From a candidate division WOR-3 bacterium (GTDB lineage: Bacteria > Hydrothermota > Tepidihabitantia > B3-TA06): a stretch of 64,000 nucleotides of DNA. The stretch lies in NCBI GenBank assembly GCA_965649265.1, contig CBFGKC010000006.1, forward strand, positions 114,975 through 178,974, read 5' to 3'. Within the stretch, counting starts at the first letter, position 1, and each line of letters starts with the position of its first letter. The position numbers and the translations under genes are program-made. The notes beneath the pieces were generated by a model that was given only the letters and a program-made list of their open reading frames with translations, was not told where the DNA came from and made no database searches. This document shows positions 916 to 25,017 of this stretch, piece by piece.

Positions 916-977
916 CCATTCCTCCTGAATGTTATTTTAAATCGAATCTGTAGAGAGACCACGGCCGTTGAAGCCAG

Positions 978-4340: not shown

Positions 4341-4659
4341 AACCGGATGTTCGCTCGCATTGAGTGGGGGAGAGGGCTTTTGTGAAGGCGAAGAAGGTGG
4401 TTCTAGTCAGTTAAACTTCACCGCCCCCTCCCCCTCCGGATACCGGTGGAATTTTTTGTGCCCGGGACGAATGAGGCGATTGCCTCGGCCCATGCGCCTC
4501 CCAGTCGCTGTTTGTCCCACTTCTGACCCACACTTTGACCGACTGCCGTAAGGGGCGGCTGACCCTCCTTCGGAGTGTTTGAAGTTTGCCTCGATTTCAT
4601 TTTTCAGTAGGCATACTTCCCCGCAATAATCGAAATTTCGCCCTGAATATGCCATGAAA

Positions 4660-4780
4660 AAAACCCAAAATTGGCCATTTTGTCCATCTTTTGTCCCACT
4701 TTTGTCCAGCTTTTTTTACCCCAAAATAGTCGCATTTTCCTCAAGAACGGACTACAATTTTGTGGGGATTCCCGTTTTTT
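4660..4780. repeat. Dispersed noncoding repeat, copy 1 (core TTTGTCCATCTTTTGTCCCACTTTTGTCCAGCTTTTTTT)
   Basis: The core is near-identical to 49613..49665 over about 55 nt. The flanks CCCCAAAAT...CAATTTTG(T/C)GGGGA are also shared with the 49592..49765 copy. No reading frame is conserved between the two copies. Confidence 0.55.
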
Positions 4781-4885
4781 CACCCCGGACGTCCACTTCG
4801 CCTCGCTCGTATCAAGCGGACTCCCCGTTTACCCAGTTATAAAATGAGATTCCACAAGATTAAGCCTGACTTGTGCTTATGAACG

Positions 4886-7153
4886 TTATCTCAAAATCAC
4901 GAGCTTGGTTTTGTAGCGGAACGAGCTGCCTTTTGCTTCAACGAAATACACGCCGCCGGGCATAGGACGGTTGAGGTTGTCCTTCGTGTCCCAGGTGTAA
5001 CTTACGTTATTCGAATAGATTACGGAAAGAGGAACCTGTCTTACCACTTGTCCTGCGATGTTGTAAATCGTCAGATTGACCGTTTGTCCCGGATCGGCTG
5101 AAAACAAAATCTCGGTTTGATTATTGGTAATATTCGGAATACATTCGAGCCCGTCGATTGTCGAGGTCACACCTGTTTTAAGTATCGGTACTGTAACGAC
5201 ATGCGAATCGTTGTTCGAATGAGGCAGAATGATAAAAATACGTTTTCCCCTGATCTCATAACTTTGCAGTTTAACCCCGTCCATCCATAAGTTACCATTA
5301 ATTTTGTACTTGTCTGGATCGAATTCGATGACCAGGGTTTCGTCCCTGCTGAGTTTCCCGTTAAAGGAAAAGACCAGACCTATATATTTTGAATATGAGT
5401 AACTTATGTTGTGTATGTCCCGAAGCTCATCCATGAAATCGCCGTATTCGTCAGGAAACAGGTAATCGAGATGGGGAAAATCGGTTTCCATAGCGGTGAA
5501 AACCTTATTGATTTTATCGTATGCCGTATCAGAACCACCATCGAACCATGCCCATGGATGTCCAGCAGTCAGCACATATTTTCCTTTCTGCAATAATATC
5601 TTGACGGAATCATAATTATCTGGTGTATCGCCCGACCACGTTGAGGAAAGGAGCCATAGTCGATTACTAGGTGAATAAACGGGGCACACAAAAGTATTCA
5701 CTTTGGATTTCGCTCTTACGAAGGAATAATCACTGACTTTAAAACCGTGGCGGAGCAGTGAAGAAGTAAGGGAAGCGCACGTTTTGAATCCGGGGGGACG
5801 AATGAAACGCAAGGATTTGTTCGTCAGACCTAAGGAGTCGTACATCTTTTCGATTCTTACGAAAGTGGATTCAGCACCTATCGAATCGTTGTGCTCAAAC
5901 TCCCAGCCTGGCCCCAGAGAATCCGGCGTCGGATAGTCAGGCTCGCTGTCACTTGGGGTGTGGTGCAGACCGTGGCTGCCCAAACGCGCCTGGTCTTCGT
6001 AGCCGTAAATCAAGTTTGCGTTTTCTATGTTGCGCAGCCAGGCCCTGTATTCTTCAGTTGAATGGTAGAGGACATTCCTGTACTTACCGTTTACTCGCCA
6101 CCACCGGGTTTCTTCAGGGTTTTCTACCCAGGAGCTGTCCCTGACATAATTAAGCAAGATCAGCCATCCCTGTTTCATGCGAGGATGATCTTCCAACAAT
6201 CTTACCATGCAATGACTTATTGGAGTTGTCGTATCCTGTCCGGATTTAGGCACGAACCATGTGGGCGGCGATCCTGGTTTTTTAGGAACCTCAAAGGGGA
6301 TGTTGTCAAACATCATCATTACGATTTGCTCGTTCCCGTTGGGGAACGGGGAGAAGTATGCGAGAGGGCATTCGAGTGCTGTTTGAATTTCTTCTGAGGC
6401 GTTGCCTAAGACAAGTTCATAACTGCATTCGAGAACATCACCAGGGCCAAGAATGGAGTAAGATGCCGGGCCGGTCCATGAATTTATTTTTCTCAACAAC
6501 TCACTTTTTAGAGTCCATTCCTTTGAGTGTGAAATGTGGTTAAGATTCCACAATCCCCAATAAGGGTTTCTTGAGATTACCCATAACGTGGAGTAAAGAT
6601 TTCGGAATTCTAGTATAGGGAAAACACTCAAGGGAGATTTTTTTAAAGTATCAGTGTCGGAAAAAGAGTAGACTTCGCCTGTATGATTATAAGTCTTGAA
6701 AGATTCGAAAGTCGGTATCTTCGATGTGAGATCAAGCCCTTCGGGAAATTTTACCGTGTCGAGTGCCTCGAAGCGGTATTTCAAGAACAGATGATTTTCC
6801 ACAAGCGTCATTTCAATTTCTGTGGAGAGGTTAAGCGGGGTAGCACTCGAATTGGTGAATTGCGGAGAAAATATTTTAATCTTATTTGTGTCCAGTATTA
6901 CGACTTCTCCCGATGAAGGAAAGTAGTCGCCCGCCCTGAGGGCAAAAAAATCATTTGTTCCGTCAACGATCTTTTTTTCTCCGGCGGTAAGATTCAGGAT
7001 AGAACCGACAGGGGTTTTCAATTTCGTAACACTCGTAGTGACTTCAAATGAAGATGATCTTATTGACCATGTGCCGTCGAGATTATTGATTACTGTTGCG
7101 AAACCAAATCCACGGATCAATAAAAACGAAATTAAAACAAGAAAACGTTTCAT
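4886..7153 (-). CDS. Large secreted protein with T9SS CTD; possible CE4/NodB-like polysaccharide deacetylase core (weak)
   Basis: The ORF 4886..7207 is trimmed to the ATG at 7153 (MKRFLVLISFLLIRGFGFA signal). The C-terminus is GGVYFVEAKGSSFRYKTKLVILR. Motifs GSHGLHH, RFIRPPGF and LTAGHPWAWFD loosely resemble CE4 motifs 2, 3 and 5. Confidence 0.5.
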   Translation of the reverse strand: MKRFLVLISFLLIRGFGFATVINNLDGTWSIRSSSFEVTTSVTKLKTPVGSILNLTAGEKKIVDGTNDFFALRAGDYFPSSGEVVILDTNKIKIFSPQFTNSSATPLNLSTEIEMTLVENHLFLKYRFEALDTVKFPEGLDLTSKIPTFESFKTYNHTGEVYSFSDTDTLKKSPLSVFPILEFRNLYSTLWVISRNPYWGLWNLNHISHSKEWTLKSELLRKINSWTGPASYSILGPGDVLECSYELVLGNASEEIQTALECPLAYFSPFPNGNEQIVMMMFDNIPFEVPKKPGSPPTWFVPKSGQDTTTPISHCMVRLLEDHPRMKQGWLILLNYVRDSSWVENPEETRWWRVNGKYRNVLYHSTEEYRAWLRNIENANLIYGYEDQARLGSHGLHHTPSDSEPDYPTPDSLGPGWEFEHNDSIGAESTFVRIEKMYDSLGLTNKSLRFIRPPGFKTCASLTSSLLRHGFKVSDYSFVRAKSKVNTFVCPVYSPSNRLWLLSSTWSGDTPDNYDSVKILLQKGKYVLTAGHPWAWFDGGSDTAYDKINKVFTAMETDFPHLDYLFPDEYGDFMDELRDIHNISYSYSKYIGLVFSFNGKLSRDETLVIEFDPDKYKINGNLWMDGVKLQSYEIRGKRIFIILPHSNNDSHVVTVPILKTGVTSTIDGLECIPNITNNQTEILFSADPGQTVNLTIYNIAGQVVRQVPLSVIYSNNVSYTWDTKDNLNRPMPGGVYFVEAKGSSFRYKTKLVILR

Positions 7154-8856: not shown

Positions 8857-10445
8857 TTTTCATCCTTACAATGGCATTCATCACACTCTTCTTCATTATC
8901 ATCCTCTTCCAGTGACGCGAAGGCCTGAGGAAGATAGCGAAGCAGGTCGCCGGCAAGCAAGGAGTGTTCGCCGATGTCCTCTATCGCTATATCAGCCGCT
9001 TTACCGTGAAGCCAGACGCCGAGCCGCGCGGCGGGGGAGAGGGGCATTTTTTGTGCAACAAGGCCGGCTATTATCCCTGTCAGAACGTCGCCGGTTCCTC
9101 CCGATGCGAGTCCCGAGTTTCCGGTCGAGTTAACCCAGGTTTCTGAGGGGCATCCGGTAACCGTCGGCGCGCCTTTGAGTGCAAGCACCGTTCCCCATTT
9201 TTTTGCATACTCCTCTGAAAGATCAAGTCTTTTCGAATCCACTTGCTTCGCATCCATGTCGGTCAGTCTTCCGAACTCTCCGGGATGCGGTGTCAGAATA
9301 AGTGGGGGCTTCTTTCCTTCGAGTAATCCAGGCTCCGAGGCAATGGCGTTGATTCCGTCAGCATCGATAATCAACGGTTTCTTCCACTGCTTGAAGAGTT
9401 TCTTGACAAGTTCCACCGTTTCAGGATGAGTGCCGAGTCCTGGACCAATTGCCAGAACGTTCACGTCCTCCACCATTGACATTATTTCCTCTAGCGCTTT
9501 CGATGAGATGTGGCCGTCGCCTGTATCTGCCAATGGTTTTTTGACGACCTCCAGGAGAGAGGAATCGAATACGCCGCTCATGGTTGCCGGGAATCCGAGG
9601 TAAACGATTCCGGCGCCGGACCTTCCTGCCGCCTCGCAGGCAAGCCGCGCGGCGCCGCTCATGCCCTGGGAACCTGCAACAACGAGAACCTTGCCGAAGG
9701 TCGCCTTGTTTCCCCAGGGGACGCGAGAAGGAACTAGGAGGGAGGCGTCTTCGGACGTCATAAGTCGCAAATGCCCCTCGCCATCAAAGATCGCGCCAGG
9801 TATACCGATATCTGCAACCCACACCTCGCCGCAGTATTCCATGGTTGGATAAAGCACATGGCAGGGTTTCAGGTAAGCCATTGTGACCGTTACATCCGCT
9901 TGAACCGCAGTCCCTGGTTTTTCAAGCATGCCGTCAGCCTCGATTCCTGACGGCAAGTCGACGCTCACGACGAAACCCTCAGACTCGTTTACGAGTTCTA
10001 TCGCCTTTTGAGCGAGTTCATCAGGCTTACCCTTGAATCCTGTGCCGAGAATCGCGTCCACGACCACGTCAAACGAATCGATATCGTCAATCCACGAAGC
10101 CAGGCCGTCCTCATCCAAGACCTCGTCTATGGGCAATCCCATCTTCTCGGCTATTCTCGCATTGGTAAGGGCATCGCCTTTCAGGTCGTCCACCCTGGCA
10201 AGCAGAATGATTTCGACGAACGCACCCCTGTTGGCCAGGTGGCGGGCCACGACGAATCCGTCGCCGCCGTTGTTACCTTTTCCGCAAACCATAAGAGCCC
10301 TTAAGCCGTCCGTGCCCAGGTACTCCTCGATGGTTTCGGCGACCGCACGGCCCGCGTTTTCCATGAGTAAAATTGTGGGTATCCCGAACTCGCTGGACGC
10401 GCGTTCATCTATTCCGCGCATCTCGTCGCGTCTCACAATACGCAT
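8853..10445 (-). CDS. nnr: Bifunctional NAD(P)H-hydrate repair enzyme (epimerase + ADP-dependent dehydratase)
   Basis: The YjeF-N domain is visible (VCGKGNNGGDGFVVARHL). The carbohydrate-kinase-like C-domain is visible (GVLVVAGSQGMSGAARLA, GPGLG, TPHPGEFGRL, SGGTGDVLTGIIAGL). It ends in an unusual acidic Cys/His tail, EEDDNEEECDECHCKDEK. Confidence 0.85.
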   Translation of the reverse strand: MRIVRRDEMRGIDERASSEFGIPTILLMENAGRAVAETIEEYLGTDGLRALMVCGKGNNGGDGFVVARHLANRGAFVEIILLARVDDLKGDALTNARIAEKMGLPIDEVLDEDGLASWIDDIDSFDVVVDAILGTGFKGKPDELAQKAIELVNESEGFVVSVDLPSGIEADGMLEKPGTAVQADVTVTMAYLKPCHVLYPTMEYCGEVWVADIGIPGAIFDGEGHLRLMTSEDASLLVPSRVPWGNKATFGKVLVVAGSQGMSGAARLACEAAGRSGAGIVYLGFPATMSGVFDSSLLEVVKKPLADTGDGHISSKALEEIMSMVEDVNVLAIGPGLGTHPETVELVKKLFKQWKKPLIIDADGINAIASEPGLLEGKKPPLILTPHPGEFGRLTDMDAKQVDSKRLDLSEEYAKKWGTVLALKGAPTVTGCPSETWVNSTGNSGLASGGTGDVLTGIIAGLVAQKMPLSPAARLGVWLHGKAADIAIEDIGEHSLLAGDLLRYLPQAFASLEEDDNEEECDECHCKDEK

Positions 10446-14905: not shown

Positions 14906-15040
14906 CTTAGCGGTATGTTTCTATTTATGAGCTATGAGGGAGAAGGGGGGGCAGGAGCCCTCCTCAGAGACCTCTCGGTGTCGATTTTACATAATTTTCT
15001 GAGCGGAGTATCTTTCTATTCACGACCAATGAGGGATGGT

Positions 15041-15096
15041 GTGTTACGGGGGGGGGACGGGTGTTACGGGTGGGTGTTACGGGTGGCGTTACGGGG
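15041..15096. repeat. Short tandem repeat (GTGTTACGGG x4, the reverse complement of CCCGTAACAC) overlapping the rSAM stop codon
   Basis: The sequence reads gtgttacggg ggggggacgg gtgttacggg tgggtgttacggg tggcgttacgggg. The rSAM stop codon (TAA at 15089..15091, minus strand) lies inside the last unit. The same unit recurs at 48003..48081 and 58790..58830. Confidence 0.6.
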
Positions 15097-16111
15097 CAGA
15101 GAGAATCTGGGCGACGAATGGTTCGGTACCACCGCATTCATTTGCGGCGGCCCGGCACGATGCCCGGCATGTCTCGATATCCTTGCACCCTCTGCACATC
15201 TCCGGTATATCCTCAATGAACTCCTTCCTTTCGGCGGAATCCATCAGCTCCCAGAAACTTTTTTCCCTGATATTCCCGAGAACGAGCGGGGTGTGGTTGC
15301 ACGGACGCAGATTGCCTATGGAATCCACCACCGGGTAGCACTCCTCGGTTCCCGCCGAGCAGAAACCGAAGCCGAGATGCGGGTAGTTCTTAATATCCAC
15401 GAGGCAGCAGGGGATAGGTATCGATACGCTTATGGGGAACCTCTTTTCTACCGCGAACCGCTCGGCTGTGTCGAGCATGAAGAGCACATCCTGGGGGGAG
15501 GGGGAGAGTTCGTCGAGATTCTCGAGTCCCCTTCCGCCGGGATTGAAGCGGTTGAGCATCACGCCGTGCGTACCGAGGCTCCTTGCGAACTCCAGGGTTT
15601 CCCAGAGCCTTGCGAGGTTGATCTTTGTGACGATCAGGGCGACTACAATCTTCGCCTTTGTCGAAAGCACGGCCTCTATCCCTCGAACTGATTTCTCGAA
15701 GCTTCCACTGCATCCCTGCAGGTATTCGTGCTCGTCTGGCCTGTCCGATAGAAGCTGGATCTCGAAAAGAGAGATTCCAGCCCTCACAAGCGTCTTTGCG
15801 AGTTTCTTGTCGAGCGCCTGGCCGTTCGTGATGATGTTGAGCTGAGCGCCCGAGAGTGCGGCCTGAAGCGAGATGTCCACGAGATCGGGTCTCAGAGTCG
15901 GTTCTCCGCCGCTTATCGTGAAGAGTGACGGCTTCGTCTCTTTTAAGAGCTTTGCCAGCATCTCGCGGGTTTCCTTTGGGTTCAAGTCCTCATGTACAGT
16001 TTCCGGATGCTTATGCCAGATGTTGTAGCAGAAGCGGCATTTGAGATTACATCTTTGGGTTACTTCGAAGATGAGGATTTTCTGGCGGCGGTCCCTTAAC
16101 GAATCGTTCAT
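15089..16111 (-). CDS. Radical SAM enzyme with C-terminal SPASM-type auxiliary cluster domain (peptide/protein-modifying maturase class)
   Basis: The N-terminal CNLKCRFCYN carries the CX3CX2C motif. The C-terminal Cys cluster is PCCLVD...FCSAGTEEC...RPCNH...CRGCKDIETCRASCRAAANECGG. It starts 1 nt after the stop of paralog 16113..16688, and an AAGGAAG Shine-Dalgarno site sits upstream. Confidence 0.75.
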   Translation of the reverse strand: MNDSLRDRRQKILIFEVTQRCNLKCRFCYNIWHKHPETVHEDLNPKETREMLAKLLKETKPSLFTISGGEPTLRPDLVDISLQAALSGAQLNIITNGQALDKKLAKTLVRAGISLFEIQLLSDRPDEHEYLQGCSGSFEKSVRGIEAVLSTKAKIVVALIVTKINLARLWETLEFARSLGTHGVMLNRFNPGGRGLENLDELSPSPQDVLFMLDTAERFAVEKRFPISVSIPIPCCLVDIKNYPHLGFGFCSAGTEECYPVVDSIGNLRPCNHTPLVLGNIREKSFWELMDSAERKEFIEDIPEMCRGCKDIETCRASCRAAANECGGTEPFVAQILSAP

Positions 16112-16112
16112 G

Positions 16113-16688
16113 CTAATTATCTTCCTTTTTCTCAGTTCCTGACGTATCCGGTTTGCTGACTATTAGTTTTGCCAGGTGAGAGGTTTCAGAATTAAGCGAG
16201 GATATTTTCATGAAGACCCTGACGGTTTCAGGCGGAAGGCCTCGAACATCCAGCCTCGCTTCCAGAAGTTCCGCGGAGCTGTCGAATTTCCCGTCGACCG
16301 GGTCGAGCGATATAATATAAGGTTCAGCATCCGGTCGGCTAACCGCGGCCGTAGCACTGTATATTATGTCACCAGGTATTTCTGTTCTTCCAAGAACCTT
16401 TATAGTTACGGAATCCGCACCCCTGGTCGGGTTGGGATAGATCAAAAGCGAGTCGACAATCTCATCTGCAGGCGGAGAAAAATGAACATAGTAGCAAGTA
16501 ATCGCCGGTTCATAGTGACGGTGTGTCAGACATCCTATGAGCGAAAGTAAGCCTCCTAGAAGAACCAGTTTAAAATGTCTGGTTGTTCTTGAAAATCGGT
16601 TCTTGCTCTCTAAAACCGAAAGAAGATGGAATACTAAACCTCCCGCTCGGCTCAACAACCCTGAGAGCCTATTACGCAACTTGATCAC
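16113..16688 (-). CDS. Array paralog 12/12: single-pass membrane protein with TCY/PNPTxGADSV ectodomain
   Basis: The architecture is MIKLRNRLSGLLSRAGGLVFHLLSVLE, then a TM helix (LVLLGGLLSLIGCL), then ITCYY...PNPTRGADSVTIKV. It is the last gene before the rSAM gene. Confidence 0.6.
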   Translation of the reverse strand: MIKLRNRLSGLLSRAGGLVFHLLSVLESKNRFSRTTRHFKLVLLGGLLSLIGCLTHRHYEPAITCYYVHFSPPADEIVDSLLIYPNPTRGADSVTIKVLGRTEIPGDIIYSATAAVSRPDAEPYIISLDPVDGKFDSSAELLEARLDVRGLPPETVRVFMKISSLNSETSHLAKLIVSKPDTSGTEKKEDN

Positions 16689-16717
16689 TGGTCAATATAC
16701 GGCTGATAGGGATGGTG

Positions 16718-17278
16718 TCAATCCTTTTCTTCCGTAGAGTCAGGGTCCGTCACGACAAGCATTAGTTGTTGCGTATACATGCCTGCCTGGGAGGTGTAGA
16801 AGGTCAGGTCCACCCATGTTGTTTCGGAGACAAGCCCTCCGATATAGAACCTCCCCTGAACGGCCTCAAGCGTGTCCGAAAAATCTCCGTCAACCGCATC
16901 GAGAGGCGTAAGAAGCGTGTCTGATGCCAGTTTTATCGTCGCGCCGGTAATGATGTTGCCTTCTATTCCCGGATCGTAAACCTTGGCCGTCGCCTTCACC
17001 GTTACCGTATCCGCGCCTTTTGTAGGATTCGGCGTAATAGCAGCCTCGGTGACTACCACGGGGTCAATTATGGCCATGTCGTAGCAGGTTGCTATGGGTG
17101 TCTCCGGCTGTGCCCTGAGCCAGCCTGCAACAGTCAGAACGAGACCTAAAACGAAGAGCTTGGTCCACCTCGCCGTCTTTTTAATAGTTCCCTCCTCCTC
17201 CCAGCTTGAAAGAACCGGAAGGAGTTTTGCTCCTATCCTCGTTATGAATGATGAAAGCGCGTTTCGAGTCTTAATCAT
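16718..17278 (-). CDS. Array paralog 11/12
   Basis: It reads MIKTRNALSSFITRIGAKLLPVLSSWEEEG, then a TM helix, then IATCYD...PNPTKGADTVTVKATAKV...DGDFSDTLEAVQGRFYIGGL...TDPDSTEEKD. Confidence 0.6.
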   Translation of the reverse strand: MIKTRNALSSFITRIGAKLLPVLSSWEEEGTIKKTARWTKLFVLGLVLTVAGWLRAQPETPIATCYDMAIIDPVVVTEAAITPNPTKGADTVTVKATAKVYDPGIEGNIITGATIKLASDTLLTPLDAVDGDFSDTLEAVQGRFYIGGLVSETTWVDLTFYTSQAGMYTQQLMLVVTDPDSTEEKD

Positions 17279-17307
17279 GTTTTACTGTACCTCACTTTTC
17301 CGGACTG

Positions 17308-17865
17308 TCAATCTTTTTCTGTCGAATCGGGTTCAGAAATCACAAGCTGCAGCCCTTCAACATTTATGCCTGCCTGCGGGGTGTAGAATGTGATGTAAAC
17401 CCGGGTGGTTTCGGGTCCAAGCCCGGTGACGCACAGACGGCCTTCAACTGTCTCGAGCGTGTCCGAAAACTTGCCGTCGACCGCACGGAGAGGGACAATA
17501 ACCGTATCGCCGCCAATTCTTGCATCCGCTCCGGAGATTATATTGCCTTCAAGTTTCGAATCGTAGACCCTTGCGGTCGCTCTCACCGTAACCGAGTCGG
17601 CGCCATTTGTGGGGTTAGGCGTAATAGCAGCCTCAGTGATTATTACCGGTTCAATGACGACCGGATCATAACAGGTCGCATACCCCCTGGTCTCTTGGGC
17701 CGAGAGCCAGCCTAGTAAGCCCAGGATGAAACCCAGAATGTAGATTTTTGCAAATCTCGCGAATCCCTTAAGAACCCCTTCCTCCTCCCACCTTGAGAGA
17801 AGCGGGAAGAGTTTTGCTCCAACATTGCTTACAAACGCCGCGAGCGAGCTGCGAGCTTTGGCCAT
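17308..17865 (-). CDS. Array paralog 10/12
   Basis: It reads MAKARSSLAAFVSNVGAKLFPLLSRWEEEG, then a TM helix, then YATCYD...PNPTNGADSVTVRATARV...DGKFSDTLETVEGRL...SEPDSTEKD. Confidence 0.6.
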   Translation of the reverse strand: MAKARSSLAAFVSNVGAKLFPLLSRWEEEGVLKGFARFAKIYILGFILGLLGWLSAQETRGYATCYDPVVIEPVIITEAAITPNPTNGADSVTVRATARVYDSKLEGNIISGADARIGGDTVIVPLRAVDGKFSDTLETVEGRLCVTGLGPETTRVYITFYTPQAGINVEGLQLVISEPDSTEKD

Positions 17866-17929
17866 AAAATTCCTCCTTGACTGCGACTACTCCTGTTATA
17901 CAGTTGCAGGTGCAATAAATTCCCTTAAC

Positions 17930-18469
17930 CTATTCGGTTATCTCGATATCTGAGCTGTCTTCGATTACCTTGTTCTTGCTTGTAGATATTCTGACATGGA
18001 CTTTTGCGTTTGCGGTATCGATACCCCTGATGCTTAACTTCGCCGAGATTTCCTCGTATGAACCGTCAAAAGCACTATCCGCAGCCAGCATCTCCACCGT
18101 GTCGGAATTTGCACCTTTCCCGGTAATGAAACACTGTGCCGATTTTACATAATTGTCCTTGGAGCCTGGGATTATATTGGCTCTGGCTTTGACCATAACC
18201 GAGTCGGCTCCAGCCGTAGGATCAGGCAAAACCTCGATATTATGAATGGGGGGAGGTACAGGCTCGTAGCACGTGACCGGGCAGCAGGCGGTCGAGCCGG
18301 CCGCTCCGGAAAGACCTAATCCTGAAACGAGTGCACTCAGGAATGAAAGCTTCATCCACCTTGCAAGCTTGGGTAGTACCCTGCGTTCCTCGCATCTTGA
18401 GTAGAAGTCAAAAAGCGCAAAACCGGCTTTCCTGAGAATCTCGAAAACAATGTGTCTTGCCTGAGCCAT
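17930..18469 (-). CDS. Array paralog 9/12
   Basis: The ORF is trimmed to the ATG at 18469 (MAQARHIVFEILRKAGFALFDFYSRCEERRVLP). A TM helix follows, then VTCYEP...PDPTAGADSVMVKARA. Confidence 0.55.
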   Translation of the reverse strand: MAQARHIVFEILRKAGFALFDFYSRCEERRVLPKLARWMKLSFLSALVSGLGLSGAAGSTACCPVTCYEPVPPPIHNIEVLPDPTAGADSVMVKARANIIPGSKDNYVKSAQCFITGKGANSDTVEMLAADSAFDGSYEEISAKLSIRGIDTANAKVHVRISTSKNKVIEDSSDIEITE

Positions 18470-18476
18470 GATACTG

Positions 18477-19016
18477 CTATTCTGATTCCGTGATGTACAA
18501 ATCCACTGTCGTGTAATCTCGCTCCCCTTTATTGGAGGTGGCCTCAATGTTTACACTGCAGGTATCGCCTGCGGCAAGATTGCCTACGTATAATCGAGCT
18601 TCTACGTCTTTCATTCCGTATGGATCGGTTTTCGTGACAATCATCGTTATGGTGTCGTCATTAAGAACACATATCACCTTATCCACATAATCTTCTTCTA
18701 TGCTTACTCCATTGGGGACATTTGCGCTCGCTTCAACGGTTACTGAATCTGAGCCTGACGTCGGATTAGGGGTTATTGAGCAGGTTGCGATTTGAGGTTT
18801 CGGGTACTCCATCGGTGCGTAACACGTTATGCAGTTGAGCATGCTGGCCGCACTCAATGCGGTAATTCCTGTCACGAAGGCTCCGAGGAAGGTCGTTTTT
18901 ACCCACCTGGAAGCCCTTGGCAGTATCCCGCAATCCTCACAGTGGGAGAAGAAGTTGAAGAGTGATGTTCCCATTCTCCTCAAGGTTTCAAAGAAGAGGT
19001 AGCGGCTACTGGCCAT
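18477..19016 (-). CDS. Array paralog 8/12
   Basis: It reads MASSRYLFFETLRRMGTSLFNFFSHCEDCGILPRASRWVKTTFLGAFVTGITAL, then ITCYAP...PNPTSGSDSVTVEASA. The N-terminal 50 aa are near-identical to paralog 7. Confidence 0.55.
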   Translation of the reverse strand: MASSRYLFFETLRRMGTSLFNFFSHCEDCGILPRASRWVKTTFLGAFVTGITALSAASMLNCITCYAPMEYPKPQIATCSITPNPTSGSDSVTVEASANVPNGVSIEEDYVDKVICVLNDDTITMIVTKTDPYGMKDVEARLYVGNLAAGDTCSVNIEATSNKGERDYTTVDLYITESE

Positions 19017-19031
19017 TGTGCCTCCGGTGAT

Positions 19032-19547
19032 TTATTCAGTTATCTCGAGGTCGATTGTTGTATCCGCTCGCTGGTCTTCATTGTCGTATTCTGTGATTTG
19101 TATGGTTACTGTATCGGGCTCGAGGTCTCCTATATACAACTTCGCGTTCACGGCATATTCATTCGTGTAGTCTCCAGGCTCTATCTTCATGACGGTGGTG
19201 TCATTCTCGAGGATACATATCACCTTTTTCAATTCAATCCCGTTATCGGCAATTGCCTTGGCGGAAACGCTAACAGTGTCGGCCCCTGCCGTAGGATTTG
19301 GTGCCACGGAGGCGTTTTCGATTCGAGGTGATTCAATTGGCAAGTAGCAGCCGGTGGGGATACAGTTGATCATGCTGGCCGCGCTCAACGCGGTAATTCC
19401 TGTCACGAAGGCTCCGAGGAAGGTCGTTTTTACCCACCTGGAAGCCCTTGGCAGTACCCCGCATTCCTCACAGCGAGAGAAGAAGTTAAAGAGTGAGGTG
19501 CCTATCCTCCTCAAGGATTCAAAGAAAAAAAACTTTGTTCTAGCCAT
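19032..19547 (-). CDS. Array paralog 7/12
   Basis: The ORF is trimmed to the ATG at 19547 (MARTKFFFFESLRRIGTSLFNFFSRCEECGVLPRASRWVKTTFLGAFVTGITAL). A TM helix follows, then PTGCYLP...PNPTAGADTVSVSAKA. Confidence 0.55.
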   Translation of the reverse strand: MARTKFFFFESLRRIGTSLFNFFSRCEECGVLPRASRWVKTTFLGAFVTGITALSAASMINCIPTGCYLPIESPRIENASVAPNPTAGADTVSVSAKAIADNGIELKKVICILENDTTVMKIEPGDYTNEYAVNAKLYIGDLEPDTVTIQITEYDNEDQRADTTIDLEITE

Positions 19548-19629
19548 GGTTCCTCCTTTCACTGTATTAAATATAATCAACTTGCTCGGATTGTCAATCC
19601 ATGAAAATCACCTGAAATCCTGGCAGGTG

Positions 19630-20157
19630 TTATTTATCAGTAACGCGGAGAACGGTCGAGCCTATGCCCCAGCCTGAGGTTTTTGAATCGACTTTTACAA
19701 AGACCTGAGTGCTGTCCGTTTTGATTTTCTTCACGTATATGCGCCCGATGAGTTCCTCATTATTCTCGTCGAATGCGCCGTCCCTCGCTATCATCCGGAT
19801 GGTGTCTCCATCGACTATGCACTGGGCTGAGGCTATTATTTCGAGATCGCTTGCGTTTTCAAGTCTGGCTTTGGCGGTAACGGTCACCGAGTCGGCGCCT
19901 TTCGTCGGGTTAGGCTTGACTACTATCTCCGAAACCCTGGGATATACGGCCACAGGTTCGTAGCAGGTCACGAGCCCCTGATCCAGCGGAGGTTTTTTGG
20001 CGCATGCCGCAATGATGGTCAGCCACGCTCCAGCAAGCGCGAGCTTGAGCCAGCGTGATATCCTTGGCAGAGCGCTTCGTTCCTCACACCCGGTCAGAAT
20101 GGAGAACAGTGCCGAGCCTGTTCTCCTCAAAAACCTTGACAGTAACTCTCGCTTCAT
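19630..20157 (-). CDS. Array paralog 6/12
   Basis: It reads MKRELLSRFLRRTGSALFSILTGCEERSALPRISRWLKLALAGAWLTIIAACA, then VTCYEP...PNPTKGADSVTVTAKA. Its start overlaps the upstream stop by 4 nt (20154..20157). Confidence 0.6.
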   Translation of the reverse strand: MKRELLSRFLRRTGSALFSILTGCEERSALPRISRWLKLALAGAWLTIIAACAKKPPLDQGLVTCYEPVAVYPRVSEIVVKPNPTKGADSVTVTAKARLENASDLEIIASAQCIVDGDTIRMIARDGAFDENNEELIGRIYVKKIKTDSTQVFVKVDSKTSGWGIGSTVLRVTDK

Positions 20158-20726
20158 AACGAGTCCTTTTCAGTGATAAATAGCGGTAATGAAACCAGTG
20201 CTTCTTCACCCTTGGAAGTGGCCGCGTGCACGTAGACGAAGGTGGTCCCGGGTTTAAGACCCGCGACGCTGATGCGTGCCTCAATCATCTCGACGGTATC
20301 CGAGAAGCGGCCGTCCACAGGGTACATCCGGATTTTCCTTGACGTATCAATGGCCATTACGAGCCAAGCATCCGACACGTAATTGTTCTCAAGGCCAGGT
20401 TCCAGCACCCTTGCGGTGCCCGTTATCTTGACAGTGTGCACGCCCCTTGTCGGGTTCGGGCTTGCCTGAACTACTGAGATTTCGGGATCCATCCTTCTCA
20501 TCATGTAACATGTGTGGACAGGACCGTCGCCGTCTCCTCCTGGTCCGGGTCTTGCCTTTTTCCCGCACGAGGCTATCAGGGCGACAACGAGCCCGAGTAG
20601 CGAAACCTTCAAAAAGCGCGCGGTCTTTGAAAATATTGGAGTATCCTGGCATCTCGATAGCGCATTAAACACCAGATTACCTGCATTTCTGAGAACTGCA
20701 ATCAAGCTCTTTCTCATCTTTGCCAT
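20154..20726 (-). CDS. Array paralog 5/12
   Basis: It reads MAKMRKSLIAVLRNAGNLVFNALSRCQDTP, then a TM helix, then a Gly/Asp-rich insert (PGPGGDGDGP), then VHTCYMM...PNPTRGVHTVKITGTARV. Confidence 0.6.
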   Translation of the reverse strand: MAKMRKSLIAVLRNAGNLVFNALSRCQDTPIFSKTARFLKVSLLGLVVALIASCGKKARPGPGGDGDGPVHTCYMMRRMDPEISVVQASPNPTRGVHTVKITGTARVLEPGLENNYVSDAWLVMAIDTSRKIRMYPVDGRFSDTVEMIEARISVAGLKPGTTFVYVHAATSKGEEALVSLPLFITEKDSL

Positions 20727-20745
20727 TCTGCCTCTCCTATCTCGT

Positions 20746-21288
20746 TTAATCTGGTTCAGTAATCACCAGTTCTAAAGATTCAATTTCAATTTGACCGGAA
20801 GAATTTTCTACCTCTAAGTATATCCATGTCGTTTCCGGCTCAAGGTCTCCAACGTAAAGTCGGCCGACTATTCTCTCCGAAGCGGCGTCGAATTTCCCGT
20901 CAATCGCCCGCATGGGGTAATATATTGTATCTCCATCCATTCTCATGCGGGCTGAGCTTATCGTGCTTTCGCCGCTGTAGTGATCGCTAATCTTTGCCGT
21001 GGCCTTGACGGTTACCGAATCGGCGCCCCTTGTAGGGTTAGGCCTTACGGAAAGTTTGGATAGTTCTATGAGGGGAGGGGGGGCGGGCTTGTAGCACATT
21101 ATGACGTCTTCCTTTGCTTCGAGCGAGAGAGCGCTCACGAGTGCCACGAAAAATCCGAGGAATGTGAGCTTCAACCATCTTGCCGCCCCGGGGAGGATGC
21201 GGCGTTCCTCGAATCCGGAAAACGTTCCGAAAAGCCTTCCGCCAATCCTTGCAAAAAAGTCTGCCAGGCGTTTTCTGAGTTCAGGCAT
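20746..21288 (-). CDS. Array paralog 4/12
   Basis: It reads MPELRKRLADFFARIGGRLFGTFSGFEERRILPGAARWLKLTFLGFFVALVSAL, then IMCYKP...PNPTRGADSVTVKATAKI. Confidence 0.6.
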   Translation of the reverse strand: MPELRKRLADFFARIGGRLFGTFSGFEERRILPGAARWLKLTFLGFFVALVSALSLEAKEDVIMCYKPAPPPLIELSKLSVRPNPTRGADSVTVKATAKISDHYSGESTISSARMRMDGDTIYYPMRAIDGKFDAASERIVGRLYVGDLEPETTWIYLEVENSSGQIEIESLELVITEPD

Positions 21289-21289
21289 A

Positions 21290-21859
21290 TCAATCCTCCT
21301 TATTCTCGTTGCTGTCCGCTTCCGGTGCGGTGATGATTAATTGCCTCCAGGTGCTTTCCGCGTTGCCTGAGTTTGTCCTCACCACTATGTAAATCCAGGT
21401 GGTCTCCGGCTTGTGATCCCCGACGTAGAGACGGCCTTCGACTGTTTCAAGGGTATCGCCGAACTTACCGTCAACCGCTTTCATCGGATATAAAAGGGTA
21501 TCTCCGGTAAGCTGCATAATTGCTTCGGAAACAGCGGTGTCACCTGAGCAATAATATGCAGATTCCAATTTTGCGGTTGCCTTGACTGTAACGGTGTCTT
21601 TTCCTGCAGTGGGGTTCGGTGTTGCCGAGACATCGAAGATACTTAAGTGAGGTTCCTCAATAGGCACGTAGCACATGATGATATCGTCGTCCGCCTTGAG
21701 CGCTGGCGCGCCCAGCAGGGTTACCAGCAATCCCAGAACCGAAAGCTTTAGCCATCTTGCCGGTCTGCGTAGGATACCGCGTTCCTCCAATCCGGACAGT
21801 ATCCCGAATAAGGAGCCGCCTATCCGTGAAGAGATGCGGGCCAGTAAGCCTTTTGTCAT
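21290..21859 (-). CDS. Array paralog 3/12
   Basis: It reads MTKGLLARISSRIGGSLFGILSGLEERGILRRPARWLKLSVLGLLVTLLGAPAL, then IMCYVP...PNPTAGKDTVTVKATAKL. Confidence 0.6.
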   Translation of the reverse strand: MTKGLLARISSRIGGSLFGILSGLEERGILRRPARWLKLSVLGLLVTLLGAPALKADDDIIMCYVPIEEPHLSIFDVSATPNPTAGKDTVTVKATAKLESAYYCSGDTAVSEAIMQLTGDTLLYPMKAVDGKFGDTLETVEGRLYVGDHKPETTWIYIVVRTNSGNAESTWRQLIITAPEADSNENKED

Positions 21860-22435
21860 CTACTCCTCCCTGGCAGCGCTCGAATCAGCTGCGAGCGAAT
21901 CAATCCTTGTTACGGTGTAGGACTGCCAAAGAATCTCTTCATCTTCTCTGGAACTCGTCACGTCTATAAAGAACCAGTGGGTGCCGGTATCCAGGTCGCC
22001 TGTGTAAAACATGGCCTCAAGAACCTCAAGAGTGTCGTTAAGCTTGCCGTCCACGGCCTTCATGGGAATCCTCAGGGTGTCACGCTGCCTGGAAAGCCAG
22101 GCGTTTCGGATGTAATTGTTCTCAAGGGTCGGGTCCAGAACTTTTGCAGTTACCTTTACTTTTACCGAGTCCGCTCCTCGAGTCGGATTTGGTGTGATGG
22201 ACACATCCGAAATCTTTACCTCCGGCATCCTCATGGCTACGTAACAGGTCTTAATTGTTTCTACCTCGGCGGAAAGTGCTCCGATGGCTGCGGTAAGAAA
22301 TCCAAGCAGTGAGAGCTTTAACCAGCGCGAAGCGCTGGGCACAATCCCGCGCTCTTCGAATCGCGACAGGAGTGAAAAGAGACCTCCTCCCAGCACTTCA
22401 AGAATCCTTACGACGAACCCTTTCGTTCTCGCCAC
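21860..22435 (-). CDS. Array paralog 2/12 (GTG start)
   Basis: The track ORF 21860..22654 carries a non-homologous 73-aa N-terminal extension. The paralog alignment starts at the GTG at 22435 (VARTKGFVVRILEVLGGGLFSLLSRFEERGIVP), preceded by GGTGGAG. The start lies 1 nt after the stop of paralog 1. The ectodomain reads KTCYVA...PNPTRGADSVKVKVTAKV. Confidence 0.55.
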   Translation of the reverse strand: MARTKGFVVRILEVLGGGLFSLLSRFEERGIVPSASRWLKLSLLGFLTAAIGALSAEVETIKTCYVAMRMPEVKISDVSITPNPTRGADSVKVKVTAKVLDPTLENNYIRNAWLSRQRDTLRIPMKAVDGKLNDTLEVLEAMFYTGDLDTGTHWFFIDVTSSREDEEILWQSYTVTRIDSLAADSSAAREE

Positions 22436-22436
22436 G

Positions 22437-23009
22437 TCACTCCACCTTTGTCGAATCAGTCCTGATAGAATCAGGCTCCGAGACTTCAAAATAAAACCAG
22501 CTCGCTTCCAGTGCATCCTGGGATGTCTGGACGAGCATTGAGATCGAGTACTGGCCCGGTTCAAGATTTCCAACGTAAACCGTACCCTCGAGCACCTCGA
22601 GCGTGTCGTCCATCTTGCCGTCAAGTGCTTTGACCTTGAACCTCGTCGTATCACCGTCCCAGGAGAGCCAGGCGTCCTTTATGAAGTTATCCTTGATATT
22701 CGAGTACATCACCTTGGCCTGGGCCTTCACTTTCACCGAATCCGCTCCCTTCGTGGTATCAGGGGTTACGGACTTCTCTGTTATGATGACGTCGGGAATC
22801 CTCGCGACGATGTAGCAGGTGACTTCCGGATCCCTGGCTTGAAGTGAGAGTGTCGCGACTAGCGAGGCTATGATTCCCAGGGTCGAGATCTTTATCCATC
22901 TCGCGGCACGCGGCATGACGCCTTTTTCTTCTATCATTGTCAGAAAATGGAAAATTGCATCTCCCAGTTTCCCTAACAGCCTGGATAAGAGGTTGCGTGT
23001 CTTGGCCAT
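22437..23009 (-). CDS. Array paralog 1/12 (first gene of operon)
   Basis: The ORF is trimmed to the ATG at 23009 (MAKTRNLLSRLLGKLGDAIFHFLTMIEEKGVMPRAARWIKISTLGIIASLVATL), preceded by AAAGGAG. The ectodomain reads VTCYIV...PDTTKGADSVKVKAQAKV. Confidence 0.6.
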   Translation of the reverse strand: MAKTRNLLSRLLGKLGDAIFHFLTMIEEKGVMPRAARWIKISTLGIIASLVATLSLQARDPEVTCYIVARIPDVIITEKSVTPDTTKGADSVKVKAQAKVMYSNIKDNFIKDAWLSWDGDTTRFKVKALDGKMDDTLEVLEGTVYVGNLEPGQYSISMLVQTSQDALEASWFYFEVSEPDSIRTDSTKVE

Positions 23010-23059: not shown

Positions 23060-23088
23060 AATATAAGCCCCAAAAGACAGGTGTCAAG
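23060..23088 (-). promoter_or_regulatory. Candidate sigma70 promoter for the 12-paralog/rSAM operon
   Basis: On the minus strand it reads TTGACA-N16/17-TATATT (the plus strand shows tgtcaa at 23083..23088 and aatata at 23060..23065). It lies about 50 nt upstream of the first paralog's start. Confidence 0.4.
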
Positions 23089-23140: not shown

Positions 23141-23224
23141 AAAACATGGGAAAGAACAGGGAGTTTCCAATGAAAAAAAAAAGGTTTGTGATAGTTCCGA
23201 GTCATTTTACAGGGAGAGATTGAG

Positions 23225-24547
23225 ATGCATCCATTTCTGGTTTTCTGTTGTTGTTTGATTTCATCTTTGACTTGGAATAGACATTATGATTTTCGGTTTA
23301 GTGACCACTGTAGCGCGCTTGTGCCGGTAGAGGACGGTTACGTGATTACGGGTAACACTATGCGGTATCTATTCGTGCAGAAGGTCGATACTCTGGGAAA
23401 TCAAGTCGGTTACAAAGAGTGGTATAAGGCCGAAGGTTATGACATAGAGAGAATGTCTGATGGTTATATTATTCTTGCGTACAAAGACGAATCTCCCAGG
23501 CACGGGATTTGGTTGGTAAGAACAGATAGCGATTTTGACACACTTTGGAGTAGAAGCTATGGATATAATAATGGAATTATGGCAAAATCTCACTCATTTG
23601 ATTTAACAGATGACAGTGGTTTAGTGATGGTCGGTGAGTGCGGCACGGGTCTTATTGTCTTTAAAACCGATAGTCTTGGTGATAGCTCCTGGGTAAAAAA
23701 ATATTTTCAGTCTGTCTCGATGCGCGCTGGGAATTTTATTGAAGAAACATCTGATCAAGGTTTTATTGTTACGGGAGTTTGTGAGGAACGTTTTTTTGCA
23801 CTGAAATTGGATGAGAATGGGGATTCCTTATGGTGTAAGAAATATTTTGAGGAAAAAACAGGTGAAGGTCTTTGTATAAGAGAAACCTCCGACAAAGGCT
23901 TTATAGTATTGGCTAGGATAAGGTATGGTAGTTCGGATTCCTTGCTTCTCATCAAGACGGATTCTTTTGGAAACGCTTTGTGGGTGAGAAAATTCAATTC
24001 GATGTCTCATTGGACTAGAACATGTTATATTGAGGTTCTGGATGATGGTTATGTTATGATTTCAGGGTCACAAGAAGGTCCATTAGTCAGGAAATTTGAC
24101 GAGTCTGGGAATGTCCTTTGGACAAAGACCTACAATCGTAATTTCGGTTATTTTTCCGGATTTGAAGGCACATGTATTCATTACACATCGGATAAAGGTT
24201 TTATTATTGGCACCGCTTTGGATATATCTCCATACGGATCAGACCTCTGGCTGGTGAAAACCGACAGCCTAGGAAACACGGTTCCTCTTGAATCCGTGAT
24301 AGAGCCAACGGAGACTGCCGTTAGCGAAGTTCATCTGAGTGTTTTGAATTCAGCTGTTGCATATTCCTTACCTGCTGGCGAGCGTTGTTTGTTGAAAATC
24401 TATGATGTTAGTGGAGTATTGAAAAAAGGAGAAATTGTTTGTGGCCGCGGAGAGATGCGACTAAAAGAATTCCCTGTAGGGGTTTATTTCGCTGAGTTAC
24501 AGTTCATGCGAAGTGCTGAAATCAAAAAGGTATTAGTTTTTCCCTAG
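23225..24547 (+). CDS. Secreted beta-propeller-like repeat protein with T9SS CTD (paralog of 2652..4340 and 11732..13069)
   Basis: The repeats are SDGYIILAYKD ... GDSSWVKKYF / GDSLWCKKYF / GNALWVRKFN / GNVLWTKTYN. The C-terminus is VGVYFAELQFMRSAEIKKVLVFP. An AGGGAGAG Shine-Dalgarno site sits upstream. Confidence 0.55.
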   Translation: MHPFLVFCCCLISSLTWNRHYDFRFSDHCSALVPVEDGYVITGNTMRYLFVQKVDTLGNQVGYKEWYKAEGYDIERMSDGYIILAYKDESPRHGIWLVRTDSDFDTLWSRSYGYNNGIMAKSHSFDLTDDSGLVMVGECGTGLIVFKTDSLGDSSWVKKYFQSVSMRAGNFIEETSDQGFIVTGVCEERFFALKLDENGDSLWCKKYFEEKTGEGLCIRETSDKGFIVLARIRYGSSDSLLLIKTDSFGNALWVRKFNSMSHWTRTCYIEVLDDGYVMISGSQEGPLVRKFDESGNVLWTKTYNRNFGYFSGFEGTCIHYTSDKGFIIGTALDISPYGSDLWLVKTDSLGNTVPLESVIEPTETAVSEVHLSVLNSAVAYSLPAGERCLLKIYDVSGVLKKGEIVCGRGEMRLKEFPVGVYFAELQFMRSAEIKKVLVFP

Positions 24548-24576: not shown

Positions 24577-25017
24577 TTGTTCAAGTACAATCCCCGCGTG
24601 AAGCAGCTCTTATCGGACTGGCGGGTGCTTTCGGCGATCGCGATACTCGGATGGGGGACCTGGGGCATACTCTCAAAGATTGCCCTGAAACAGGTTGACT
24701 GGCGGGTCATGATGCTGATTACGTCCGTAGCCGCCCTTCCTCTGGCTTTCATACTCGGGATTCCGAATTTCGACTGGAAGTTTAACCGCTACATCCTTCT
24801 CGCTTTTTTTGCAGGAATCGGAGCCGAGGTCGCGACGCTCTCCTTCAACCGCGCGATTCAAAAGGGCGGACCCGCGAACGTCGTGGTCCCACTCACCTCA
24901 CAGTACGTGCTCGTCATAGTGCTTTTTTCGACCATTTTCCTAAAAGAGCCTATAACGTGGCAGAGAATCGTCGGCATCGTTGCCGCGCTCATAGCAATTG
25001 TGATGCTTTCGCTGTGA
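24577..25017 (+). CDS. Small DMT/EamA-like membrane protein (4 TM)
   Basis: Hydrophobic segments are visible (VLSAIAILGWGTWGIL, VMMLITSVAALPLAFILG, YILLAFFAGIGAEV, YVLVIVLFSTIFLKEPITWQRIVGIVAALIAIVMLSL). The last segment fits the EamA C-terminal pattern. Confidence 0.5.
   Translation: MFKYNPRVKQLLSDWRVLSAIAILGWGTWGILSKIALKQVDWRVMMLITSVAALPLAFILGIPNFDWKFNRYILLAFFAGIGAEVATLSFNRAIQKGGPANVVVPLTSQYVLVIVLFSTIFLKEPITWQRIVGIVAALIAIVMLSL

Follow-up and report, generated by a model that had tools for sequence, protein, structure and literature searches.

Twelve candidate substrates of a radical SAM/SPASM enzyme in a tandem gene array of a candidate division WOR-3 bacterium

Radical S-adenosylmethionine (SAM) enzymes with a SPASM domain that modify whole proteins are few, and to our knowledge anSME and QhpD are the examples. 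Each of the two revealed new protein chemistry. anSME (AtsB, ChuR) acts in the cytoplasm on a short linear Cys motif with a nearby Pro, located near the N-terminus of a full-size protein that is exported later. QhpD introduces Cys thioether crosslinks into the QhpC subunit in the cytoplasm, before this subunit moves to the periplasm. PqqE forms a carbon-carbon bond to a Tyr ring, and in the gene clusters of RiPPs (peptides that ribosomes synthesize and that are modified after translation) multi-copy precursor arrays beside radical SAM/SPASM maturases are common. In this study, we analyzed a stretch of 64,000 nucleotides (nt) from contig CBFGKC010000006.1 of a candidate division WOR-3 bacterium (assembly GCA_965649265.1), which is referred to below as the window. 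It harbors twelve paralogous genes (c1 to c12) in tandem on the minus strand, followed directly by a gene for a radical SAM/SPASM enzyme, and array and enzyme gene form one operon-like unit. Judged from sequence and predicted structure, the array probably encodes twelve substrates of this adjoining, uncurated enzyme, which would be protein-modifying. A preliminary description of the locus had presented the array as a recombination-prone family comparable to surface-variation loci. Such an enzyme-substrate system is more likely than fast antigen variation because each copy carries a Cys-Tyr motif that also marks the neighbors of the enzyme in other phyla. The coupling to the radical SAM gene and the motif shared across phyla are the main point that was absent from the preliminary interpretation.

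The enzyme compared with described systems

Two Pfam matches above their cutoffs place the gene product in the radical SAM superfamily (PF04055, E = 1.5e-20, 74.5 bits against a cutoff of 29.5) and among the SPASM proteins (PF13186, E = 4.3e-07, 30.6 bits against 21.5). The radical SAM core starts at residue 16 and contains CX3CX2C at Cys21/25/28, and the seven-Cys SPASM motif is complete (C251-X14-G-X4-C271, C306-X2-C309-X5-C315-X3-C319, C326). An N-terminal RRE (peptide-recognition) domain was not detected in the enzyme. None of the best 25 of 88 NCBIfam matches reaches its cutoff; the best scores belong to tetrapyrrole enzymes (AhbD, NirJ2) and remain far below what these models demand, with 111.8 bits against 500 for AhbD as the best. 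In a profile search of solved structures PqqE was closest (E = 1.7e-23, full length). The AlphaFold model of the enzyme has a predicted local distance difference test score (pLDDT) of 92.3, and its nearest folds are SkfB, BlsE (ranked second), anSME, SuiB and PqqE. SkfB, anSME, SuiB and PqqE act on peptides or proteins, while BlsE is a small-molecule enzyme.

Like anSME, the enzyme belongs to the SPASM proteins of about 340-370 aa without an RRE or leader-recognition domain, it aligns to the anSME fold over its whole length (template-modeling (TM) score 0.69-0.71, 4k36-4k39; SPASM region E = 7.8e-10), and no dedicated protease or transporter accompanies it. However, sulfatases carry C/S-x-P/A-x-R where the candidate substrates described here carry T-C-Y-x-P, and the invariant Tyr has no counterpart in sulfatases. 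Moreover, the candidate substrates lack a sulfatase domain, the enzymes are only about 20% identical, and no anSME model is among the best 25 of 88 NCBIfam matches. PqqE and its peptide PqqA resemble the present system in that PqqE is the closest solved structure by profile and the motif contains an invariant Tyr. In contrast to PqqE, the enzyme scores 81.7 bits with TIGR02109 against a cutoff of 381, and neither PqqD, PqqB, PqqC, PqqF nor other pqq genes were found among the neighbors scanned. The candidate substrates are proteins of 170-800 aa, mostly with an N-terminal hydrophobic segment, and not 20-30-aa peptides of the PqqA type, and the partner residue of the Tyr is Cys instead of Glu. 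Apart from its anSME-like overall architecture, the enzyme therefore shows none of the features that define anSME or PqqE. The likeness to QhpD and QhpC is one of logic only (a protein modified in the cytoplasm and then exported). The window contains no qhp genes, protease or ATP-binding cassette exporter of the kind belonging to the wider pathway (described in PMC7876137), and substrate fold and motif are unlike those of QhpC. Multi-precursor RiPP clusters share the tandem arrangement, in which several diverged genes stand directly upstream of one maturase gene and their products are conserved toward the N-terminus and vary more toward the C-terminus. They differ from the present locus, which encodes folded, apparently exported proteins of 18-20 kDa without leader-recognition domain, protease or exporter.

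A Cys-Tyr motif in the proteins encoded next to the enzyme

In every WOR-3/TA06 relative examined that holds both genes, the paralog family is followed by the radical SAM/SPASM gene in the same order. Enzyme orthologues in these genomes are 66-100% identical, and beyond them hundreds of full-length homologues follow at 40-44% identity. From 206 homologue loci in genomes of GTDB species the best 80 were sampled, originating from Planctomycetota, Chloroflexota, Myxococcota, Gammaproteobacteria, Kiritimatiellia, Cyanobacteriota and WOR-3 (at least six phyla). A same-strand open reading frame (ORF) ending at most 250 nt upstream of the enzyme gene is present in 62 loci, and 59 of these 62 ORFs contain the dipeptide CY (1-4 each, 101 in total). 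The density of CY is 5.0 per 1000 aa in the upstream ORFs versus 0.53 for 714 further ORFs from these loci. Aligned, the sites yield the logo (V/A/I)-T(69%)-C-Y-(E/A/D)-P(66%)-(M/A/V), with which the window copies agree at position -1 (T in 9/12) and at position +3 (P in 7/12). As an example, a 20-mer spanning TCY in a candidate substrate from Chloroflexota reads APITCYEPMIVDY. Outside WOR-3 the upstream motif proteins have no detectable similarity to the family of the window, which indicates that what accompanies the enzyme is the motif and not a protein family. Four motif proteins from other phyla could not be assigned to any family with Pfam or NCBIfam. In a planctomycetotal locus six upstream paralogs all carry xCYxxxxxP followed by helical domains, and in another locus a protein with a twin-arginine translocation (Tat) signal, the same xCYxxxxxP motif and a helical domain is encoded upstream of the enzyme. 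An N-terminal hydrophobic segment was found in 51 of the 59 motif proteins and a Tat-like RR motif in at least 19, and these features fit a modification in the cytoplasm before export. The genes downstream of the enzyme are heterogeneous (64 loci); thus, the unit is a two-gene cassette without protease or transporter.

The proteins of the window are composed of a conserved N-terminal extension of 40 residues, a hydrophobic export helix, a disordered linker with (T/M)-C-Y, often followed by x-P, and an immunoglobulin (Ig)-like sandwich. C-Y is invariant in 12/12 window copies. In an alignment of 47 family members M1, G16, C65-Y66, P83, T86 and G88 are invariant, and E27, R37, K40, D90 and D120-T121 nearly so. 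In the AlphaFold model of c4 (mean pLDDT 87.9), residues 2-28 form a helix, residues 33-56 a hydrophobic helix and residues 74-176 a seven-stranded Ig-like beta-sandwich (pLDDT 95-98), with Cys-Tyr in a linker of low confidence (pLDDT about 62) between the hydrophobic helix and the sandwich. At the end of the hydrophobic helix the lipobox pattern [LVI][ASTVI][GAS]C is found in c5 (IASC), c6 (IAAC) and c12 (LIGC) only. The lipobox-like Cys is followed by Lys/Pro/Gly-rich tethers and is kept in orthologues; those of c6, for example, retain L(I/V)AAC-(A/T)KK. In most of the remaining copies the helix ends in A-x-A-like sites resembling those of signal peptidase I. Thus, the proteins are predicted to be exported by means of a signal peptide with an unusually long, conserved N-region. 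Scans of six copies with Pfam and NCBIfam assigned no family, and a profile search of Protein Data Bank (PDB) sequences returned nothing at E up to 10. Foldseek matched the family model to generic Ig/E-set folds of the PDB only (PmoB, sulfite oxidase C-domain, RbmA, SoxZ, NPC2, archaellin), and therefore the function cannot be read from the fold. An exhaustive HMMER search also located the Ig domain, tandemly repeated 4-10 times, in giant proteins (600-4100 aa) such as P0044 (1077 aa). The repeat reads PNPTAGA ... DGxFNS..E, and no Pfam model matches it. The same search revealed small proteins that form a distant sister group; their N-terminus is shorter, and they have the same TCY, PNPTxGA and DGxFDSDSE motifs. 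In one locus of this group (L110) a radical SAM homologue with 37% identity directly adjoins the family gene. On two metagenome contigs (L103 1796-8516, L102 5729-8522) up to 6 TCY-Ig copies occur within 8 kb, interleaved with unrelated genes of about 275 aa.

How the system might operate can be sketched from these data, which show the anatomy of the locus, the coupling of array and enzyme gene, the joint occurrence of motif and enzyme, and the pattern of evolution; the role as substrates, export with cleavage, the time of modification and its chemistry are inferred from them. A cytoplasmic enzyme would recognize the local T-C-Y-x-P in the unstructured linker without the help of a leader peptide, as anSME does with sulfatases, and would modify Cys and/or Tyr prior to export. 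The modified protein would then leave the cytoplasm via Sec in this organism and often via Tat elsewhere. Candidate chemistries are a Cys-derived thioether or a Cys-Tyr crosslink (-2 Da), or an oxidation of the Cys (-18 Da). A bolder proposal, which we put forward with considerable reserve, is that an as yet undescribed radical SAM/SPASM modification might take place at T-C-Y-x-P, in at least seven phyla and on largely exported proteins whose carrier domains are unrelated. In WOR-3/TA06 the carrier would have expanded to arrays of 7-12 or more Ig-fold envelope proteins, and their Ig cassettes would pass from one lineage to another, as surface components are expected to do when selection is frequency-dependent. 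Such a modification could be a Cys-Tyr crosslink or a protein-bound redox group derived from Cys/Tyr, unlike formylglycine and the sactionine/ranthionine thioethers. In the full-text literature no description of the pairing was found, and since much subscription literature lies outside this coverage the term undescribed is provisional. Neither the enzyme subfamily nor the motif proteins have a Pfam or NCBIfam family of their own. A leaderless SPASM enzyme of 340 aa paired with a five-residue motif is simple and testable. The pairing offers enzymologists a defined candidate substrate for in vitro study and would provide annotators with a naming rule for many 'hypothetical' proteins, most of them apparently exported. 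In the uncultured WOR-3/TA06 bacterium the candidate substrate appears amplified to twelve copies, shuffled by modules and held under purifying selection in each copy.

Several points weigh against an enzyme-substrate relationship. The system is known here from sequence and structure prediction. Within WOR-3/TA06 the adjacency of array and enzyme gene is weak evidence when taken alone, because gene order is conserved over many flanking genes. The genes in the 80 loci were called by a simple longest-ORF procedure, and the Fisher test for the enrichment of CY in upstream ORFs (p = 2.6e-44) overstates independence, since the loci are related by descent. For the sister-group arrays L102 and L103 a radical SAM gene is missing within 8 kb, and CY is absent from two of the copies. 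Export of Sec substrates is as a rule rapid and takes place in the unfolded state, and a modification in the cytoplasm would need time. Finally, cleavage and lipidation are predicted from sequence patterns; alternatively, the proteins might escape cleavage and span the membrane as bitopic proteins.

Evolution of the array

The twelve genes encode proteins of 171-191 aa and span 23009-16113 from c1 to c12 (Table 1), with -4 to 82 nt between neighbors. A search of all ORFs of the window with the family profile matched these 12 copies alone. All copies are complete genes, each with a start codon, and none is a silent cassette. In agreement with the preliminary description, the copies are widely diverged: for pairs other than c7/c8, which are discussed below, identity is 21-57% for proteins and 38-65% for DNA, and synonymous divergence (dS) is at least 1.1 for every neighboring pair tested. 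The Gly/Asp-rich insert PGPGGDGDGP and the two additional Cys residues (TACCPVTCY), both reported previously, are located in c5 and c9, respectively, and are kept in the orthologues of other genomes.

A word-indexed search of 5.8 billion proteins returned only 43 relatives, all of them unnamed proteins from WOR-3, TA06 or unclassified metagenome-assembled genomes (MAGs). Copy number differs among related WOR-3/TA06 genomes from 1 to 12, with a single copy in L004, L008/L009 and L010, 7 copies in L007, 9 in L001/L002, 10 in L005, at least 11 in L022 and 12 in the window. The copies of L022 (WOR-3 MAG Zod_Metabat.887, 2-5985) are followed downstream by a radical SAM gene with 67% identity, and one of the copies is cut by the end of the locus. 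Its high copy number indicates that large arrays also exist in a second, more distant WOR-3 lineage. In a neighbor-joining tree the copies cluster by array position across four genomes and not by genome. Therefore, the duplications are older than these lineages, and concerted evolution did not take place. The single-copy genes of relatives resemble c7/c8, and by this resemblance the c7/c8 type is likely the ancestral single-gene type of the array.

The preliminary description had proposed a conserved framework with hypervariable loops. As dS between paralogs is saturated, the ratio of nonsynonymous to synonymous divergence (dN/dS) was taken from orthologue pairs, by pooled Nei-Gojobori counting and not by site models. 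Whole-gene dN/dS ranges from 0.10 to 0.33 (14 orthologous pairs). Pooled by alignment column over 17 orthologue pairs, the corresponding ratio pN/pS reaches its 9-codon window maximum of 0.63 in the N-terminal helix, not in an Ig loop, and amounts to 0.24 in Ig loops and 0.21 in strands. The codon with the most extreme value, that of residue 118, falls short of significance (binomial p = 0.11). The ratio thus stays below 1 everywhere including the loops, and diversifying selection was not detected. Of the three outcomes that the preliminary description had named as contrary to it, this is the only one observed. The loops are also not the more variable part, with a mean entropy over the 12 copies of 1.63 bits in Ig loops versus 1.96 bits in strands as assigned from the AlphaFold model. 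The conserved motifs C-Y, PNPTxGAD and DT, together with the strongly conserved DG/DGKF, are sited in linker and loops and not in strands. These values indicate that every copy is retained by purifying selection, which would make the copies non-redundant.

Recombination was assessed by permutation of maximal matching segments in all 66 pairs and by the maximum chi-square method on triplets. The near identity of c7 and c8 over their first 50 codons, noted before, was confirmed (92% over 167 nt, with the peptide quoted at the time); at nt 22-183 of the genes 149/162 positions are identical, and a run of 67 nt is perfect. It had been suggested that some neighboring copies share such segments, which holds for this one pair only. 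c7/c8 is the sole pair whose segment was reached by 0/2000 permutations, while four further pairs share short segments of 13-18 nt with nominal p values of 0.001-0.018, uncorrected for 66 tests. With a dS of 0.09 for the tract core and of 3.1 for the remainder of both genes, the tract reflects gene conversion and not slow divergence. Within the tract both c7 and c8 are 74-80% identical to L001_7, the orthologue of c8, and 55-58% identical to L001_6, the orthologue of c7. The conversion therefore ran from c8 to c7, with c8 as the probable donor. The 5' module of c7 is 92-96% identical to window c8 and to L005_8, and its Ig part has no close relative anywhere (at most 60% nt identity).

Maximum chi-square breakpoints were detected in c4, c5, c7 and c11 (observed values reached by 0/5000 permutations), and most of them separate the 5' export-signal module from the Ig module. 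The maximum is 66.7 for c4. For c5 it is 82.3 with a break near residue 63, and the informative sites of c5 favor L001 in the 5' part (61 vs 10) and L005 in the Ig part (95 vs 21). The 5' and Ig modules have discordant histories in c4, c5, c7, c11 and c12. In c12 a block of about 300 nt in the Ig domain is sharply set off from its surroundings, and dS to L005, the closest relative, is 1.43 in the Ig part and 0.04 in the 5' part. Divergence is hence uneven, not uniform, along the genes. Between the window and L005 (the two closest genomes) the array is 77-79% identical at the nt level and its flanks 85-89%. Against the distant L001, array and enzyme gene are 73-82% identical and the flanks 66-73%, and dS is about 0.6 for c4, c8, c9 and c11 while the flanking genes are saturated. 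This opposite behavior of array and flanks toward L001 and L005 suggests that segments of the array were transferred from lineage to lineage. For c8, c9 and c10 there are no equivalents in L005. The L005 copy at 9415-9942 combines a c8-type 5' module with a c7-type (L007_6-like) Ig part. The public gene call at this position comprises 77 aa, yet the full gene of 175 aa is intact when read from stop to stop, by which a pseudogene fragment was ruled out for copy 8 of L005. The array would thus have been born of old duplications of one ancestral c7/c8-type gene, and it would change as units are gained or lost, as lineages swap 5' and Ig modules and as one neighbor now and then converts another (c8 to c7).

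Alternative explanations and surrounding features

Could the array be a surface-variation (contingency) locus after all, providing alternative antigens by gene conversion and positive selection in exposed loops? The proteins appear exported and have an Ig fold, one conversion tract is recent, five copies show module-level breakpoints, divergence between the two closest genomes is greater in the array than in its flanks, genomes differ in copy number, and promoter-like sites precede c1, c7, c11 and c12. With pilS/pilE, vls and vsp-type loci the array shares a tandem exported family, at least one conversion tract and mosaicism at the level of modules. However, it differs from these loci in consisting of stable positional orthologues under purifying selection, without silent cassettes or switch elements. 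Among the characteristics of antigenic variation, mosaic genes with breakpoints are present, whereas dN/dS above 1, ongoing exchange and switch elements are absent. Only one pair is similar enough for present-day recombination. Inverted repeats that could make a promoter invertible do not flank the promoter-like sites, and the array contains no simple-sequence or tandem repeats save a 12-nt unit (x2.3) in c4. Positional orthology across four genomes, dN/dS below 1 and a loop entropy lower than that of the strands contradict a hypervariable antigen-type locus, and we consider this explanation unlikely. The recombination invoked in the preliminary description is supported; its hypervariable loops and its analogy to surface variation are not, and neither is diversifying selection.

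If the enzyme were merely a syntenic neighbor of the array, the wide synteny in the WOR-3/TA06 clade, the sister-group arrays without a nearby enzyme gene and the best NCBIfam scores to tetrapyrrole enzymes would be readily understood. Against this speak the 59 of 62 upstream ORFs that share the motif in unrelated phyla on proteins unlike the Ig family, the distance of 1 nt between the c12 stop and the enzyme start, and the coupling repeated in the sister group by L110, so that a mere neighborhood appears improbable. A classical RiPP cluster, in which the C-terminal parts of leader-core precursors are modified, cut out and released as peptides, would account for the 40 conserved N-terminal residues as a leader and for an arrangement that is common in such clusters. 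It is hard to reconcile with products of 171-191 aa that contain a confidently folded beta-sandwich of 100 residues, and with an invariant site that lies before this domain and after the export helix. In addition, the enzyme has no RRE domain, and no protease, transporter or RRE/PqqD partner was detected in the window, nor is one conserved among the 80 loci; we regard a RiPP cluster as highly improbable. Slightly less weight still can be given to pilin- or archaellin-like filament subunits, twelve variants of which would assemble into a fiber. In Foldseek, Halobacterium archaellin matches over the whole model (E 1e-4, TM 0.35), and the N-terminal helix with an Ig-like head is a similar architecture. 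Yet the match is weak (root-mean-square deviation 14.5), generic Ig folds score equally, a conserved segment of 40 residues precedes the hydrophobic helix, and lipoboxes occur in three orthogroups. No Gly-1/Glu+5 prepilin-type site was seen in the alignment, as judged by eye without a formal scan, and pilus assembly genes are absent among the neighbors scanned. Filament subunits are therefore the least probable of these explanations, and the preferred one remains that the array encodes substrates of the enzyme.

Table 1. Positions of the array genes, the enzyme gene and associated sequence features in the window
Feature	Position	Strand	Remarks
c1	22437..23009	-	190 aa; Cys-Tyr codons 22817-22812 (EVTCYIV); profile E = 5e-76; orthologue L005_1 79% aa
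c2	21860..22435	-	191 aa; GTG start 1 nt past c1 stop; Cys-Tyr 22246-22241; orthologue L005_2 80% aa
c3	21290..21859	-	189 aa; zero gap to c2; Cys-Tyr 21673-21668 (IIMCYVP); orthologues L005_3 80%, L001_2 70% aa
c4	20746..21288	-	180 aa; Cys-Tyr 21096-21091; chimera: 5' L005_4-like, Ig L001_3-like; copy modeled by AlphaFold
c5	20154..20726	-	190 aa; lipobox-like IASC (Cys54), then PGPGGDGDGP tether; Cys-Tyr 20510-20505; chimera: 5' L001_4-like, Ig L005_6-like
c6	19630..20157	-	175 aa; 4-nt overlap with c5 stop; lipobox-like IAAC (Cys52); Cys-Tyr 19965-19960
c7	19032..19547	-	171 aa; Cys-Tyr 19349-19344 (PTGCYLP); 5' module converted to c8 type
c8	18477..19016	-	179 aa; Cys-Tyr 18824-18819; probable conversion donor; orthologue L001_7 83% aa
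c9	17930..18469	-	179 aa; two extra Cys (TACCPVTCY); Cys-Tyr 18271-18266; orthologue L001_8 81% aa, same CCPVTCY
c10	17308..17865	-	185 aa; Cys-Tyr 17673-17668; old duplicate of c11 type (dS 1.12)
c11	16718..17278	-	186 aa; Cys-Tyr 17086-17081; orthologue L005_9 92% aa
c12	16113..16688	-	191 aa; GTG start; lipobox-like LIGC; Cys-Tyr 16496-16491; stop 1 nt before radical SAM start codon
Radical SAM/SPASM enzyme	15089..16111	-	340 aa; ATG 1 nt after c12 stop; PF04055 + PF13186
Conversion tract, c7 copy	19360..19526	-	67-nt perfect core 19390-19456 (19456-19390 = 18925-18859)
Conversion tract, c8 copy	18829..18995	-	67-nt perfect core 18859-18925
Divergent block in c12 Ig domain, sharply bounded	16130..16430	-	vs L005 (closest relative): 50-68% nt inside, 85-100% in flanks
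Sigma-70-like promoter match TTGACA-N16-TATATT, upstream of c1	23060..23087	-	11/12 positions; consensus match only
Identical promoter-like match, upstream of c7	19570..19597	-	in 82-nt gap; consensus match only
Identical promoter-like match, upstream of c12 and radical SAM gene	16694..16721	-	consensus match only

The identical promoter-like sites before c1, c7 and c12 would permit the expression of sub-operons. A T10 run at 23172-23181 is intergenic and lies upstream of the c1 site, and a T8 run at 19520-19532 falls within codons 6-9 of c7 (FFFF). Between the array and a divergent EamA gene (24577-25017) the window encodes a 440-aa protein on the plus strand (23225-24547) with a weak tail resembling the C-terminal signals of the type IX secretion system. 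This position is particular to this genome, and in the relatives EamA directly adjoins the array. The 440-aa protein is a 29%-identical paralog of a 445-aa protein at 13069-11732. The EamA gene on the other side of the cassette in WOR-3/TA06 loci is small and confirmed by Pfam. In three Anaerolineae loci (L031, L083, L100) the opposite strand encodes a multi-pass membrane protein of 302 aa in the region just downstream of the enzyme gene. Its N-terminus resembles, by appearance only, a transporter of the EamA/drug-metabolite transporter type, and the parallel is perhaps a coincidence.

Past the radical SAM gene, after a gap of 521 nt, follows a gene for a FadL/BamG-like outer-membrane protein (14567-13158; NCBIfam BamG 7e-13, far under its cutoff). 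Homologues behind the enzyme gene were found in L001, L005 and L007 only. Being missing from the L022 array and from the single-copy loci, this protein was ruled out as a dedicated partner of the array. A short G-rich tandem repeat at 15033-15096 (GGGTGTTACGGGT, 2.9 copies, 92% matches) covers the final codons of the radical SAM gene and extends beyond its stop.

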